Source: Escherichia coli (GTDB taxonomy: Bacteria > Pseudomonadota > Gammaproteobacteria > Enterobacterales > Enterobacteriaceae). Taken from it: a stretch of DNA of 64,000 bases. This document shows positions 4,006 to 46,265 of the stretch, piece after piece; the stretch's first letter is position 1; each line of letters starts with the position of its first letter. Location of the stretch: NCBI RefSeq assembly GCF_003018115.1, contig NZ_CP027457.1; one strand, given 5' to 3'. Under the pieces are notes generated by a model. The model saw only the letters and a program-made list of their open reading frames with translations, did not search any database and was not told where the DNA came from. Made by a program: the position numbers and the translations under genes.

Positions 4006-4518
4006 TTATTTCTTCAAATGTGGATGGAAATTACACGGACGCGTACGGGCATCCAGCTGCGGCGCGATGATATTTTCCCATGCGGTACGGCACGCTTTGG
4101 TCGAACCCGGCATGGCGAAAATCAGCGTTTTGTTAGCGACGCCCGCTACCGCACGAGATTGCAACGTGGAAGTGCCAATCTCTTCAAACGACAACATACG
4201 GAACACTTCACCAAAACCTTCAACTTCACGGTCGAACAACGGCAGCAATGCTTCGGGAGCCTGATCACCTTCCGTCAGGCCAGTCCCCCCCGTAATCAAC
4301 ACCACTTGTACATCGTCGCTGGCGATCCACGCAGATACCTGAGCGCGAATAGCGTAGCGGTTTTCTTTCACAATGGCTTTATCGACAACGTGATGGCCCG
4401 CTTCTTGCGCCGAATCGCGCAAATAGTGACCGGAGGTATCGTCTTCTTCACCGCGACGATTAGAAACCGTAAGAATAGCAATACGGGTCGGGATAAATTC
4501 AGTGCTTACCTGACTCAT
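4006..4518 (-). CDS. moaB: Molybdenum cofactor biosynthesis protein MoaB
   Basis: 170-aa translation [30 protein letters not shown]... Confidence 0.92.
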
Positions 4519-40870: not shown

Positions 40871-41077
40871 TCAACTCACAAAACGCCACGCCATTTTTGC
40901 AACAGCGACAGGCGCAACACCGATAATCACCCACATGAGAGTGCTACCGAAAAGCACACCCACCATGTCTTTACCTTCACCTACCAACCGGATAAAACTG
41001 CTGGCAATCACAATGAACGTCACCACCATCCACGACGCACCGAGAAGCCTCAATGCAGAGAAAATTAACTCAGCCAC
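40871..41077 (-). CDS. Hypothetical small membrane protein
   Basis: 68-aa ORF with two hydrophobic helices. Confidence 0.35.
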   Translation of the reverse strand: MAELIFSALRLLGASWMVVTFIVIASSFIRLVGEGKDMVGVLFGSTLMWVIIGVAPVAVAKMAWRFVS

Positions 41078-41149
41078 GATTTACTCTCCCCCAAATAAAA
41101 AGGCCTGCGATTACCAGCAGGCCTGTTACAAGCTCAGTGATGTAGATGG

Positions 41150-42526
41150 TCATACGTCAGCCCCTTGTGCATATCGTCTGCCACGCGCAGCAGGTGCATT
41201 TGATGCTGTGCAAATCTGTCTGGCTTCATCCTGGTCACATGCAACAAAGTGTCCGTTACAGAACCGCTGGTAAACCGTACCAAGCGAGCCAAAACGGTTT
41301 TTCGTCACAATGATTTCAGCAAATGGTGCGGCGCTACTGTTCTCGTCATATACCGCTTCCCGATAGAGCATGATGATTGAGTCTGCGTCCTGCTCAATGC
41401 TTCCTGAATCACGCAAATCTGCGTTTGTCGGGCGTTTGTTTGGTCGCTTCTCAACATCGCGCGAAAGCTGACTCAGGGAGATAACAGGCGTTTTCAGGTC
41501 TTTCGCCATCGCCTTCAGGCTTCCGGAGATGTGAGCAATTGCAAGGTCGTTGCGGTCTGCTTTCGGCTTCTCAATCAGGCCAAGATAATCCGCCATGATG
41601 AGTGACAGGTTTGGATTTTCCTGTTTGTGCCGTTCTGCGATTGAGCGTATTTCTTCGACCGATAAACGCGAGGCATCGACTACCCATACATCCAAATCTG
41701 CGAGCTGACTCATGCCGTTAGCAACACGCGCCCAGCCTTCGTCATCCATCGATGCAGGATTTCGCAGTACGCTAACCGACATCCTCCCGGCGTTGGCAAT
41801 GCTTCGCTCTGCAATCTGCAATGCGCTCATTTCCATTGAGAAAATCAATACCCCGCGCCGGACGTCAGAACCAGGAATAACGCGGCTTGCAACGCCTTCG
41901 GCAATCTTCAGCGCCAGTTCGGTTTTCCCCATACCAGGACGAGCGGCGATAATCACCAGGTCTTCCGCGTTCATCCCTCCGGTGATAGCGTCAAGTTCTT
42001 CGATTCCGGTCTTCAGGGTATCTGACTCTTCTCCGTTCCTCAGACGCCTGTCAAGCGTGTCAGTGTAGTCGGTGATGATTTCCCCTAACCGTACCGGTTT
42101 AACCTCGTCACGGGGCTTTCTGATGGCTGAAAGACGCTTTACAAGCTCATCCATCGCCTGACTAGATGCGTCGATGGTTCCGCTCTGAATTGGTTCACGC
42201 ATTTCGTCCATGATTTCCAGCACCAGACGGCGGTGATAGTTATCCGCGACCATTCCGGCATATCCCTTCAGGTTTGCGGCACTCGGGCAGTTTTTGCTGG
42301 TCATCAGGATTGACGTGAAATGCTCCTCTCCGCACGCCTCGGCAACCATCAGCGCGTCGATTAGGTTTCTGTTTCGCGCCTGCTTGCGGATAACCTCGAA
42401 GGCTTTCCGGTAGAGCGGAATTGAAAACGCTTCCGGCTCAAGCGTTGCCAGAACGTCACTGGCGGTTGGAGTTAATCCACCAATCAGCAGGCCACCGATA
42501 ACGCTCGCTTCGATATCCTGTCTCAT
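41150..42526 (-). CDS. Replicative DNA helicase, DnaB-type (P22 gene 12-like)
   Basis: 458 aa with Walker A GMGKTE and DnaB C-terminal motifs. Confidence 0.9.
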
Positions 42527-43344
42527 GCAATCCCCCTGTCTGCAAACTTCCCTTCCCGAACTCCCGTTAACGAGTCTTCCCTCAGCAGGTAATCAAAATC
42601 AGCCGTCCAGCCCGTGTCGTTGTCTCCGAAGTAAAACGGCTTGGCCTGATGCACAAACGCCCTGACATACGCTCTGAAACCGTCCACATTTGGCGTTTTC
42701 AGTTGCGGGATGATTTTCTTCAGGCGGCGTTTGCGTTTCTCGTTGACCGCAACAGCGTGTGGCAGTCTGTCACCGACTTCGGTGTTGTAGGCGTTCAGGA
42801 AGGATTCGTAGTCGATTCGTTCTGCCTTGCGACGTTCAGGTTTAACCTGCCCATCGCCACCCCCGTTAGGGGGTAAGGGGGTATTTGTATTTATTGTCTT
42901 TTGTATATTGTCTTTTGTGTTTAGCTGACTTGGCTTATACCCATTAGCCGACTTGGCTAATGTTTTATTAGCTGTTTTAGCTAATGTTAAGCTGTCATGG
43001 CTAATCCACTGAGAAACCACCTTGTTCACTCCGATTTTCACGCCATCAGCAATGAGGAATTTACGCTCGATAAGCTGGCGCTTGGCAGCGCAAACATGAG
43101 TGTGATGAATACCTGTCATGGCTGCTATCTGCGTGTTTGTGAGTCGATCCATCGGCTTATTGAATCCGTATGTCTTGCGCATGATAGCGAGCATCACCTT
43201 CATCTGCCGGACGGTTAAATCAGCCATCAGCAGACTGTCGGTAATCTCGTTAGCAACGCGCATGAAACCATCTTCGGTATCTGCCACGCGATGCTCCACG
43301 ACCTCCAGTTGAGGCCTGTAATCAGCTAACTTAACGACGCCCAT
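42523..43344 (-). CDS. Replication initiation protein with lambda O-like N-terminal domain (P22 gene 18-like)
   Basis: ...[36 protein letters not shown]... resembles the lambda O N-terminus; iterons inside the gene. Confidence 0.85.
42875..43000. repeat. ori: Replication origin: iterons and AT-rich tract inside the O-like gene
   Basis: Direct repeats TTAGCTGACTTGGCTTA / TTAGCCGACTTGGCTAA / TTAGCTGTTTTAGCTAA / TTAAGCTGTCATGGCTAA adjacent to an AT-rich stretch. Confidence 0.7.
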
Positions 43345-43526
43345 GTTTCACTCCTGCTTTGGCTAGTCTGTAAACACCAACAAGGCGCTCTGCGAACGCC
43401 CTGTTATTTGCTGCGGCTACCACTAATCCCTCAGGTGAATCAGGGTGTCGAATCTCTTCTTTTTCCTGGTATTTCTTACGACGTTTTGTCATAATTACTC
43501 CTGTGGATTGATCCAGTCTTTCTACA

Positions 43527-43802
43527 TCAGGCCTCGAAGAATTCGCCGTTCTTCGGGGCTTTTTCTTTTGTCAGCATTCTGGCTACTTTCTTAGCCAGTT
43601 CCGCCAACTCCTCGTCTTCAACACCCCATTCAAGAACAGCCAGAAGCATTCCCATTTTTGGGATGAAGCTGTCTTTCCATCGCGAAATTTGCGATTCATT
43701 AATTCCTAACGCGTCGGCAACCTTTCGCTGGCCACGTACAGCAATTCGATTCAGGATGTTGCTTGTAATTGCATTCGCTTTCTTGCGAGTACTTGTAAGT
43801 TC
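43527..43802 (-). CDS. cII: CII-like transcriptional activator
   Basis: ...GINESQISRWKDSFIPKMGMLLAVLEWGVEDEELAELAKKVARMLT... resembles lambda CII; start approximate. Confidence 0.8.
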   Translation of the reverse strand, partial: ELTSTRKKANAITSNILNRIAVRGQRKVADALGINESQISRWKDSFIPKMGMLLAVLEWGVEDEELAELAKKVARMLTKEKAPKNGEFFEA

Positions 43803-43862
43803 CATATGTAAGTATTTCCTTAACAAATAAGAAGTTATGCGCATCAACTTATGCGCGTTGTA

Positions 43863-43908
43863 TTCCCGCATTTCGGCGGGAATGAGGACCATGACTGTTA
43901 AAGAGCGG
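43863..43908 (-). promoter_or_regulatory. nutR (boxA CGCTCTTTAACA, boxB TTCCCGCCGAAATGCGGGAA)
   Basis: boxA/boxB pair just downstream of cro on the transcribed strand; same boxB as the nutL candidate. Confidence 0.6.
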
Positions 43909-43913
43909 TGTTA

Positions 43914-44108
43914 CTATTTGTTTTTCTTGTTGCTTGGGAAAGGACGAACTTCCTCTCCAATCACACTGCCATCAGGCTTTACCGTAACCATGATGTTACG
44001 GCCTGCCAGAATGGCCTTGCTGATAGCGCACTGGATTACACCAAAGTCACTGGCTGCTTTAGCCTGTCCATGGATTTTGGCGTAATCGGCAAGTGTCATT
44101 CGAATCAT
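43914..44108 (-). CDS. cro: Cro repressor
   Basis: Translation [62 protein letters not shown] resembles lambda Cro; GGAG RBS. Confidence 0.85.
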
Positions 44109-44139
44109 ATGCACTCTCCGTTATTAACCATGAACAAAG

Positions 44140-44203
44140 AATACTACAGGTATTCAAAGCAATCAATACTCAGGGTATTTTTAGTTTAAGTACCTTAGCT
44201 ATT
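44140..44203. promoter_or_regulatory. Right operator OR1-OR3 with divergent promoters pR/pRM
   Basis: 15-bp palindromes AATACTACAGGTATT (44140-44154), AATACTCAGGGTATT (44165-44179) and weaker AGTACCTTAGCTATT (44189-44203); pR -35 TTGATT / -10 TATTCT on the minus strand. Confidence 0.65.
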
Positions 44204-44214
44204 AGAATTAAGCT

Positions 44215-44931
44215 ATGGAAAATAAAAAATCACTGACGACAGAACAGCTCGAAGACGCTAAGCGGCTTAAGGCTTTGTATGAGTCAAAAAAGAAAGAATT
44301 GGGAATAACCCAATACTCAATCGCTGATGAACTGGGTATCACCCAAGGAGCGGTAGGGCATTATCTTAATGGCAGAAACGCGCTAAACGTTGAGGTCGCA
44401 TCTGGTTTTGCACGTTTGTTGCAAGTCTCAATTGCTGATTTTAGCCAGTCAATTGCTGCCAAGGTTGCAGAACAGGCAGAAAGCCTTAAGAGCGATGCCA
44501 ACGTAAGGTATGCAGGGGAATACAGAGCAGGAAAGAGGTATCCGGTGTTAAGCAGTATCCAGGCTGGCTCGTGGTGTGAAGCATGCGAACCATACACCAT
44601 TAAAGACATAGATGTTTGGCTTGAGTCTGACGCGCATATTCAAGGTAATGCGTTCTGGCTTAAAGTGGAAGGTGATTCAATGACGGCACCGGTTGGGTTA
44701 AGCATTCCAGAGGGAACATTCGTTCTTTTCGATACCGGAAGGGAGGCGATCAACGGCAGCTTGGTCATAGCAAAACTTTCTGACTCTAACGAAGCAACAT
44801 TCAAGAAGCTGATAATCGACGGCGGAAATAAATACCTCAAGGGACTTAATCCTGCATGGCCTCTCGTGCCAATCAATGGAAACTGCAAGATTATAGGCGT
44901 TGCAATTGAGACAAAACTAAGGCTGGTTTGA
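44215..44931 (+). CDS. cI: CI repressor (HTH plus LexA-like S24 autocleavage domain)
   Basis: 238 aa; ...LTTEQLEDAKRLKALYESKKKELGITQYSIADELG... and C-terminal ...AFWLKVEGDSMTAP... resemble lambda CI. Confidence 0.9.
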   Translation: MENKKSLTTEQLEDAKRLKALYESKKKELGITQYSIADELGITQGAVGHYLNGRNALNVEVASGFARLLQVSIADFSQSIAAKVAEQAESLKSDANVRYAGEYRAGKRYPVLSSIQAGSWCEACEPYTIKDIDVWLESDAHIQGNAFWLKVEGDSMTAPVGLSIPEGTFVLFDTGREAINGSLVIAKLSDSNEATFKKLIIDGGNKYLKGLNPAWPLVPINGNCKIIGVAIETKLRLV

Positions 44932-44945
44932 TCACGCAAGGGGCG

Positions 44946-45317
44946 ATTATGGTTGGAACCGCTATAGCAAGCTTTTTTGGGATGTTGGCAATCTCGACAA
45001 TTTACGGCTTAGCGCATGCTTTTATTGCGAAATCTCTATCAGAAAAAATAAGCCAGGCTTGGGCGCATAGATCAGCTCGTTTCATGATTCTGGTGATCAT
45101 AGCAATACAAGGGATATCTGCATTTATCCTCTATGGATCAAGCTTATACCTATTGTATCAAGGCGCGACATTTACGCCTTACACCAGTGATTACGGAACT
45201 CTATACGATGGTAGTGAAGACATCACTGTGGCTTGGATCGTCTTTGGTTTATCTATGGCCGTGTCTGTTGTAGCAGACATCATTAAGGTAATTCTCGTCT
45301 TAACCTTCGCTGACTAA
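44946..45317 (+). CDS. Small multi-pass membrane protein in the cI operon (rexAB position); function unknown
   Basis: About 123-aa ORF with 3-4 predicted TM helices beginning just after the cI stop; precedes OL/pL. Confidence 0.55.
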   Translation: MMVGTAIASFFGMLAISTIYGLAHAFIAKSLSEKISQAWAHRSARFMILVIIAIQGISAFILYGSSLYLLYQGATFTPYTSDYGTLYDGSEDITVAWIVFGLSMAVSVVADIIKVILVLTFAD

Positions 45318-45403
45318 CCTATAATCCCGGCAGCAATAGCTATCGGGATCCACTTCACATATCCCGCATAAAAAGCACTGAACAAGCAGACACCGAAAAA
45401 ATA

Positions 45404-45490
45404 AATATCCTTTGTATTCATTTGCTTATCATTATTTCACCAAAAATAAATACCTTGGGTATTTACACAATAAAATACCTACAGTATTCT
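45404..45490 (+). promoter_or_regulatory. Left operator OL1-OL3 and pL promoter
   Basis: AATATCCTTTGTATT (45404-45418), AATACCTTGGGTATT (45449-45463), AATACCTACAGTATT (45474-45488); -35 TTTACA / -10 TATTCT overlapping OL1. Confidence 0.65.
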
Positions 45491-45536
45491 TTAGCCATCA
45501 GCAGGACGCTGGAAGCCAAACGGAACAGATTGGCAG

Positions 45537-45577
45537 GCTCTTTAACATTGATGGGATTGTCCCGCCGAAATGCGGGA
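45537..45577 (+). promoter_or_regulatory. nutL (boxA GCTCTTTAACA, boxB TCCCGCCGAAATGCGGGA)
   Basis: boxA closely matching the rrn-type consensus followed by a hairpin, between pL and N. Confidence 0.6.
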
Positions 45578-45684
45578 ACCAAAGAGTAGTTGGCTTTGGG
45601 GTGACGTGAAGTGCAGCTGCACGACGGCAACCGGAAGATAAGCACCCGGCGCGTCACCGCCAAAGTCAATCATCGGAGGTCAAC

Positions 45685-45990
45685 ATGACAGTAGTCATTA
45701 CATATCTGGCTGACGATAACGCCAGAAATCGCCGCAGAGCACGCAGACAGGCTCAACGTGAACAGGCAATGCAAGAGCAGCGACTGGCGCGAAAAATTGC
45801 GCTAAAGCTCTCTGGTTGCGTCAGGGCAGACAAAGCAGCATCACTCGGAAGCCTTCGCTGCCAGAAGGCAGAAGAAGTCGAGCGTAAACAGAACCGTATT
45901 TACTACCGCAAGCCACGCAGTGAAATGGGTGTGACATGCTCAGGCCGCCAGAAGCAACGCGGAAAATCAATTCCAGCTTATTACGATTGA
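45685..45990 (+). CDS. N: N antitermination protein
   Basis: Arginine-rich motif NARNRRRARRQAQRE near the N-terminus; C-terminus ...GVTCSGRQKQRGKSIP resembles lambda N. Confidence 0.8.
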   Translation: MTVVITYLADDNARNRRRARRQAQREQAMQEQRLARKIALKLSGCVRADKAASLGSLRCQKAEEVERKQNRIYYRKPRSEMGVTCSGRQKQRGKSIPAYYD

Positions 45991-45998
45991 GGTTAATG

Positions 45999-46265
45999 AT
46001 GAAATTCAAATTGAACGATGAAGTTAAATGGTCTAGCTCATCAAACGGTGTAACGAAGGTAAAAATCGGGTTTATCGTTGAGGTGATTCCTCCTGGTGTC
46101 AACGTAAAAAAATTCGAACTAGGCCGTCTGCTAGATGCACCTGGCCTTCCGAGGAAAGAAGAGAGCTATATAGTTTGTGTAGGTCCAAGACCAGGATCTC
46201 GTGCCAAGCCAAAATATTACTGGCCGCGAGTTAATAACCTGCGTCGCTTACACGATGACAAATAG
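45999..46265 (+). CDS. Hypothetical early protein
   Basis: About 88-aa ORF immediately after N. Confidence 0.4.
   Translation: MKFKLNDEVKWSSSSNGVTKVKIGFIVEVIPPGVNVKKFELGRLLDAPGLPRKEESYIVCVGPRPGSRAKPKYYWPRVNNLRRLHDDK

Follow-up and report, generated by a model that had tools for sequence, protein, structure and literature searches.

The DNA analysed here, a stretch of 64,000 nucleotides from Escherichia coli (contig NZ_CP027457.1; hereafter the window), contains what appears to be a lambdoid prophage, and within its putative replication initiator gene lies a short array of repeated sequences. The question raised by this locus is whether the array is the replication origin of the prophage, placed inside the initiator gene as in phage lambda, and, if so, to which initiator specificity it belongs. 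The anatomy of the locus, its positional homology with the lambda iterons, the purifying selection on the half-sites of the repeats and the covariation of these half-sites with the N-domain of the initiator lead us to conclude, with a probability of roughly 90%, that an HK97-like lambdoid prophage has its vegetative (theta) origin here, within the part of its initiator gene that codes for the linker, and that this origin is of the lambda ori-in-O kind. The ori-in-O arrangement is already textbook knowledge, and the gene is essentially HK97 O.

The array is found in the early-right operon, which consists of the following features (coordinates of the window).

41150-42526, minus strand: DnaB-like replicative helicase gene (Pfam DnaB_C, E = 9.5e-78, plus a DnaB N-terminal domain)
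42523-43344, minus strand: O-like initiator gene, 273 aa (Pfam Phage_rep_O)
43331-43492, minus strand: ORF of 53 aa situated between cII and O and equivalent to HK97 gp53 and P22 orf48
43527-43892, minus strand: cII (Pfam Phage_CII, E = 2.4e-42)
43914-44114, minus strand: cro (Pfam Cro, E = 3.6e-26)
44215-44931, divergent from the cro-cII-O operon: S24-type repressor gene

The gene order is cro-cII-orf-O-helicase, all on the minus strand, and cro and cII are ordered as in HK97 and lambda. The early-right operon is a canonical lambdoid one, and these two upstream genes put the origin, like that of lambda, downstream of a promoter of the pR type. Because a sigma-70 consensus scan of positions 42400-44300 found no promoter, both pR and pO were placed by homology only. 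The 53-aa ORF gave no Pfam match, overlaps the start codon of O by 14 nt, and has no equivalent between cII and O in lambda. At the other end of the initiator gene, the stop codon overlaps the start of the helicase gene in an ATGA sequence (42523-42526), suggesting that initiator and helicase are translationally coupled. The helicase, with identities of 99.6% to HK97 P and 89.6% to P22 gp12, is presumed to be the partner recruited by the C-terminal domain of O. Positions 43485-43568 also contain an oop-like antisense RNA unit. The 33-mer that lambdoid phages reportedly conserve at pO and the oop 5' end (PMC3349717) has an exact match at 43485-43517, and a strong terminator-like hairpin followed by a T-run lies at 43529-43561 on the plus strand, antisense to the 3' end of cII. 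An Rfam scan of positions 41000-46000 matched no family.

The Pfam domain Phage_rep_O (PF04492) was assigned to residues 19-113 of the initiator (E = 4.1e-33; bit score 114, with the cut-off at 28.7). The protein is laid out as an N-terminal winged-helix origin-binding domain (aa 1-113), a linker (aa ~113-165) and then the C-terminal domain, and it is the linker that is encoded by the origin DNA, namely the iterons, the AT-rich tract and a mini-palindrome. Of 5426 complete E. coli genomes, 714 (~13%) carry the initiator gene. The elements of the (putative) origin are listed below, with the iterons numbered in gene order.

42988-43004: iteron 1, window strand TAAGCTGTCATGGCTAA, sense strand TTAGCCATGACAGCTTA; the least symmetrical of the four copies
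42968-42984: iteron 2, window strand TTAGCTGTTTTAGCTAA, sense strand TTAGCTAAAACAGCTAA; a perfect 6+6 palindrome with an A4 centre
42944-42960: iteron 3, window strand TTAGCCGACTTGGCTAA, sense strand TTAGCCAAGTCGGCTAA; a perfect 6+6 palindrome
42921-42937: iteron 4, window strand TTAGCTGACTTGGCTTA, sense strand TAAGCCAAGTCAGCTAA; adjoins the AT-rich tract
42882-42919: AT-rich tract of 38 bp, sense strand CACAAAAGACAATATACAAAAGACAATAAATACAAATA; 25% GC, the GC minimum of the gene
42860-42881: GC-rich mini-palindrome, sense strand CCCCCTTACCCCCTAACGGGGG; flanks the AT-rich tract

The four 17-bp copies have the general form TTAGCC-N5-GGCTAA, and their start-to-start distances are 23, 24 and 20 bp by ascending coordinate. 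Every copy is an inverted repeat with a 17-bp core (19 bp with the flanking A/T), and the iterons are best described as four palindromic dimer sites in direct order; symmetry is poor in iteron 1 (TTAGCC...GCTTA), and the first letters of iteron 4 are TAAGCC. The whole array (42921-43004) corresponds to nt 341-424 of the gene, or aa 114-141, in the middle of the initiator. The original prediction of four direct repeats beside an AT-rich tract inside an initiator coding sequence was confirmed by these coordinates, by the 25% GC tract and by the ORF at 42523-43344. The repeats within the span then given to them, 42875-43000, are real, but it stops 4-5 bp short of the end of the last copy. Iteron 3 followed by TTTTATT (42942-42962, plus strand) scores as an intrinsic-terminator-like element on the strand antisense to O, probably as a by-product of the palindrome.

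The AT-rich tract, located directly 3' of the last iteron in the sense of the gene, is presumed to be the DNA-unwinding element. It contains two copies of CAAAAGACAAT at a spacing of 14 bp, forming a tandem 14-16 bp repeat. We compared 12 O-like genes, from the window, HK97, P22, lambda and eight distant phages (of Klebsiella, Cronobacter, Providencia, Erwinia, Yersinia, Salmonella and Escherichia), and in all of them, lambda and P22 included, the tract opens with CACAAAAGA, a motif that is unpaired in the predicted single-strand DNA fold. The longer motif CACAAAAGA...CAAAAGA is likewise common to the window, lambda and all relatives compared. The GC-rich mini-palindrome matches in position the palindrome that lies to the right of ori-lambda. 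Beyond the AT-rich tract, 73% of 81 unique relatives have a perfect stem of 5 bp or more, compared with 14% of shuffles, and each group has a stem sequence of its own (for example CCCCC..GGGGG, GTCATC..GATGAC, CCGAAC..GTTCGG, and TCAGAG..CTCTGA in lambda). To judge from these alignments, a GC-rich inverted repeat to the right of the AT-rich tract is a shared architectural feature whose sequence varies with the group.

When the genes were anchored on CACAAAAGA, the four repeats of the window fell column for column on lambda iterons 1-4, and iteron 1 has the same position relative to the anchor as lambda iteron 1. The lambda iterons, inverted repeats of 18-19 bp, are annotated in NC_001416 at 39034, 39054, 39078 and 39101, and their spacing of 20/24/23 bp is that of the window in gene order. 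Lambda also shares the Phage_rep_O N-domain, the location of the origin in the inter-domain linker, the AT-tract motif, the GC-rich repeat beyond the tract and the cro-cII-O context with an oop-like antisense unit upstream. In contrast, the half-site is TTAGCC in the window and TCCCTC in lambda, the recognition segment (see below) is GIHHTHVC in the window and KLPVKRCN in lambda, and the N-domains are only ~39% identical. The window C-domain is unrelated to the P-binding domain of lambda, and the partner gene encodes a DnaB-like helicase in the window, whereas it encodes the loader P in lambda. The locus thus combines Phage_rep_O, four mid-gene iterons in lambda register and spacing, the AT-rich tract, the operon context, selection at the DNA level and a match of half-site and specificity segment, and the lambda ori-in-O arrangement suspected at the outset is well borne out.

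Gene O (gp54) of phage HK97 is 99.0% identical in nucleotides over 822 bp (99.4% in the iteron region). The same module occurs in HK97 (gp54/gp55), HK544, HK446, mEp213, ST104 and the Stx phages 1717, 2851 and YYZ-2008. Across the HK97-type phages the O gene, iterons and AT-rich tract included, is 98.7-99.1% nucleotide-identical with single-base differences only, and the centre of iteron 1 reads CATGAC in the window and HK544 compared with CAGGAC in HK97. With an N-domain and iterons near-identical to those of HK97 gp54, the window initiator belongs to the HK97 specificity class. Database records leave this origin unannotated, and that of HK97 in GenBank contains no origin or iteron feature.

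Phage P22 has the same architecture in its gene 18/gene 12 pair, with the origin inside gene 18. Four repeats of ~20 bp, unlike those of lambda, have been described in P22 gene 18, and the protein group is said there to vary with origin-binding specificity (PMC8022706). The AT-rich tract and the CCCCC..GGGGG element of P22 are 93-100% identical to those of the window. Compared with gp18, the window protein has 39% identical amino acids in the N-domain, 24% in the stretch that the iterons encode and 64% in the C-domain (same family), and the P22 iterons are TTTACC-N5-GGTAAA as against TTAGCC-N5-GGCTAA in the window. Because both N-domain and iterons differ, the initiators of P22 and the window are predicted not to be interchangeable. 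With TTAGCC iterons, another recognition segment and an N-domain identity of 39%, the window gene falls outside the P22 gene 18 specificity class; the initiator, which had been called gene 18, is of the HK97 gp54 type, and of the two proteins it is the helicase alone that closely resembles that of P22. The comparison of the iterons with lambda and P22 that had been proposed gave the lambda register with half-sites that differ from both (TCCCTC and TTTACC). We also considered and rejected an identification of the C-terminal half of the gene with P22 gene 18, since the near-identity covers an island of only ~69 bp and the C-domain stands at 64%.

This 69-bp island (42860-42928), which takes in the mini-palindrome as well as the AT-rich tract, shares 95.7% of its nucleotides with P22 gene 18, whereas its flanks are ~40-60% identical; in gene coordinates, nt ~420-480 show 93-100% nucleotide identity to P22, unlike the remainder of the gene. 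Because the near-identity is confined to the island and the N-domain and C-domain modules reassort there, the island appears, on sequence grounds, to be a mosaic joint at which N-domain and iteron modules recombine with varied modules of C-domain and helicase or loader.

We then compared silent positions in the relatives. In pairwise comparisons with four relatives whose N-domains are 57-61% identical in amino acids, the identity at third-codon positions was 0.66-0.83 in the iteron stretch as against 0.31-0.45 in the N-domain. An IMG/VR scan with the N-domain alignment retrieved 80 loci (56-100% N-domain identity), and four sites in register were found in 80/80, although these conservation counts come from phylogenetically related relatives and so do not represent independent events. 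The information content of the different regions was as follows.

Iteron half-sites: 1.90 bits at all positions, 1.99 bits at third-codon positions (37 diverged unique origins)
Iteron centres: 1.31 bits at all positions, 1.25 bits at third-codon positions (37 diverged unique origins)
Inter-iteron spacers: 1.23 bits at all positions, 1.22 bits at third-codon positions (37 diverged unique origins)
N-domain: 0.91 bits at third-codon positions, 1.05 bits at codons with invariant amino acids

Silent positions are thus conserved, and the arms of the palindromes are conserved while their centres are free; selection therefore acts on the DNA, with the signature of a dimer-binding site. The check that had been suggested, conservation of the repeats in related initiator genes, accordingly came out in favour of the iterons at the DNA level. 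Five or six iterons were observed in Cronobacter phage phiES15, phage Perceval and Klebsiella phage GZ7, in which a block inserted between iteron groups lengthens the encoded linker. Analogous six-iteron origins have reportedly been described for the Stx phages 933W and P27.

The original prediction had also presumed that the repeat sequence defines the specificity of the initiator. In the AlphaFold2 model, residues 41-110 of the N-domain (pLDDT 83-95; <50 from aa 111) form a winged helix with helices at 45-58, 70-77 and 81-93 and a beta-hairpin wing at 97-106. In this model, the segment of the protein that covaries with the iteron half-site comprises the turn and the beginning of helix 3, the usual recognition helix.

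43066-43113, minus strand: turn and predicted recognition helix H3, codons aa 78-93; covaries with the iteron half-site

The Foldseek neighbours of the N-domain model were all winged-helix regulators (CRP, MarR and IclR types), but the matches were weak (E >= 4e-3, the best being 4e-3) and were taken as consistency evidence only. A PDB sequence search with the full protein returned no solved homologue at E <= 1.

To relate this segment to the half-sites, 129 unique pairs of N-domain and origin were collected from the window, three IMG/VR scans and reference phages; the lambda-seeded scan gave only sequences 97-100% identical to lambda and added little diversity. Among these pairs, the half-site tracks the recognition segment without exception in the in-register origins.

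GIHHTHVC or IHHTHVC (window, HK97): half-site TTAGC(C/T)
LTGMAPTKCS (P22): half-site TTTACC
LTG(I/M)LPHKCS: half-site TTACC(C/T)
ITKLPVKRCN (lambda): half-site TCCCTC
MIxKH(L/H)THCS: half-site TTAGCA

Phages phiES15 and Perceval were considered as exceptions and rejected as such, their deviations being register shifts from the extra iterons. The TTAGCC/GIHHTHVC pair occurs in phages of Escherichia, Salmonella, Klebsiella, Yersinia, Providencia and Cronobacter. N-domains of the IHHTH type were paired with at least five C-domain classes (HK97/P22, RCIP0114, phiES15/GZ7, lambda and Eho49/Yen types), and the HK97/P22-type C-domain was paired with three iteron types, so that the half-site is independent of the C-domain class. 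The half-site covaries with the recognition helix independently of the C-domain, which supports the presumption that the repeat defines initiator specificity.

Several other explanations of the array have to be weighed against an origin in use. That the cluster is a chance or low-complexity product of an AT-rich stretch has a practically negligible probability. The region is indeed AT-rich, and isolated iteron-like sequences with one mismatch were observed at 4133-4149 and 43591-43607, a number that equals the chance expectation of ~1.9 per window; one isolated sequence of this kind lies inside cII (TTAGCCAGTTCCGCCAA). For the pattern TTAGC-N7-GCTAA with at most one mismatch, however, the 64-kb window contains 6 matches in total as against ~1.9 expected, and 4 of the 6 lie within 84 bp, a density never reached in 1000 first-order Markov simulations of the window, in which the largest cluster per 100 bp was 2. 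Since the search pattern was derived from the same data, the conservation in relatives, with four sites in register in all 80 IMG/VR loci of the same N-domain type, is stronger evidence than this chance test. We also regard as very improbable, if less so than chance, the idea that the repeats are a by-product of a repetitive peptide linker under selection at the protein level and have no cis-acting role as DNA. The repeats do encode a repeated LAKxAN peptide, and the linker is of low confidence and probably disordered, with pLDDT below 50 from aa 111. Against this, the third-codon positions of the half-sites carry 1.99 bits, compared with 0.91-1.05 in the well-conserved N-domain; the units are palindromic as DNA, a property that is meaningless for a peptide; and their centres vary freely although they code for part of the same peptide. 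In addition, the units lie at the exact positions of the experimentally defined O-binding sites of lambda, and the half-site changes whenever the DNA-binding helix changes.

An explanation that we consider unlikely, though the least so of these, accepts the array as a true lambdoid origin by descent and takes it to be disused now, because the prophage is defective or replicates from another origin, the iterons then being titration or incompatibility sites or a recombination joint. The mosaic joint is clear, with 95.7% identity to P22 over 69 bp and 40-60% in the flanks, and the N-domain and C-domain modules reassort at this AT-rich island. However, the whole O gene with its origin is 99% identical to those of the viable phages HK97, HK544, HK446 and mEp213, the reading frames of O and the helicase are intact, and the strong purifying selection that the half-sites show across genera speaks for an origin still in use in this lineage. 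We therefore retain the reading as a probably functional vegetative origin of the HK97 type.

For this origin, protein binding, unwinding, helicase recruitment and origin activity are inferred only by homology with lambda. With the recognition helix at aa ~78-93, dimers of the O-like protein would bind the four palindromic iterons and their TTAGCC half-sites. The resulting nucleoprotein complex, together with negative supercoiling and transcription from the pR-like promoter, would destabilise the adjacent 38-bp AT-rich tract, and the C-terminal domain of O would then bring in the phage's own DnaB-like helicase, which is encoded immediately downstream. Lambda itself uses P plus the host DnaB; binding of lambda O bends the DNA, and the A+T region opens on supercoiled DNA. 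Lambda O dimers bind inverted-repeat iterons and open an adjacent A+T region of 40 bp (PMC5043065), and the AT-proximal iterons are needed and, together with the AT tract, suffice for unwinding and replication in vitro (cited in PMC7466680). Small in-frame deletions in the iterons or the AT region are cis-acting ori- mutations, some of which leave O able to complement (PMC6022878). Iteron plasmid origins of the Rep_3/RepA/pi type likewise have a replicon-specific repeat array by an A+T-rich unwinding region and a winged-helix initiator (PMC5043065). The plasmid iterons, however, are bound by monomers, non-palindromic, helically phased and located outside the rep gene, whereas the sites in the window are palindromes inside the gene, which by analogy with lambda would imply dimer binding.

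In the searchable literature, which did not include the original HK97 and P22 genome papers, we found no experiment on, or listing of, the TTAGCC iteron class, and a literal text search for the iteron sequences gave only unrelated primer matches. We tentatively propose, as a possibility that taken as a whole we hold to be somewhat doubtful, that the TTAGCC iteron and the His-rich helix (GIHHTHVC) form an experimentally uncharacterised specificity class of the lambda O type, that the list of segments and half-sites is a predictive code, that the AT-rich joint is a site of module exchange and that the iterons are sensed by defence systems. If this is true, the segments and half-sites would predict the origin specificity and replicon compatibility of co-resident prophages, and the nearly invariant AT-rich joint would be a recombination site by which N-domain and iteron modules are swapped onto helicase or loader modules. 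In HK97-like phages, Lamassu- or OLD-type defences might in addition recognise the palindromic iterons, as has been reported for lambda.

The origin of a common prophage module, found also in several Stx-converting phages, is now marked, and the origin can be annotated in HK97-like prophages. Shared initiator specificity of co-resident lambdoid prophages also becomes predictable. Reports of an enrichment of Lamassu and OLD defence proteins at lambda iterons (PMC12663957; bioRxiv 10.64898/2026.07.10.737580) make it relevant that the exact palindromic sites are now defined.
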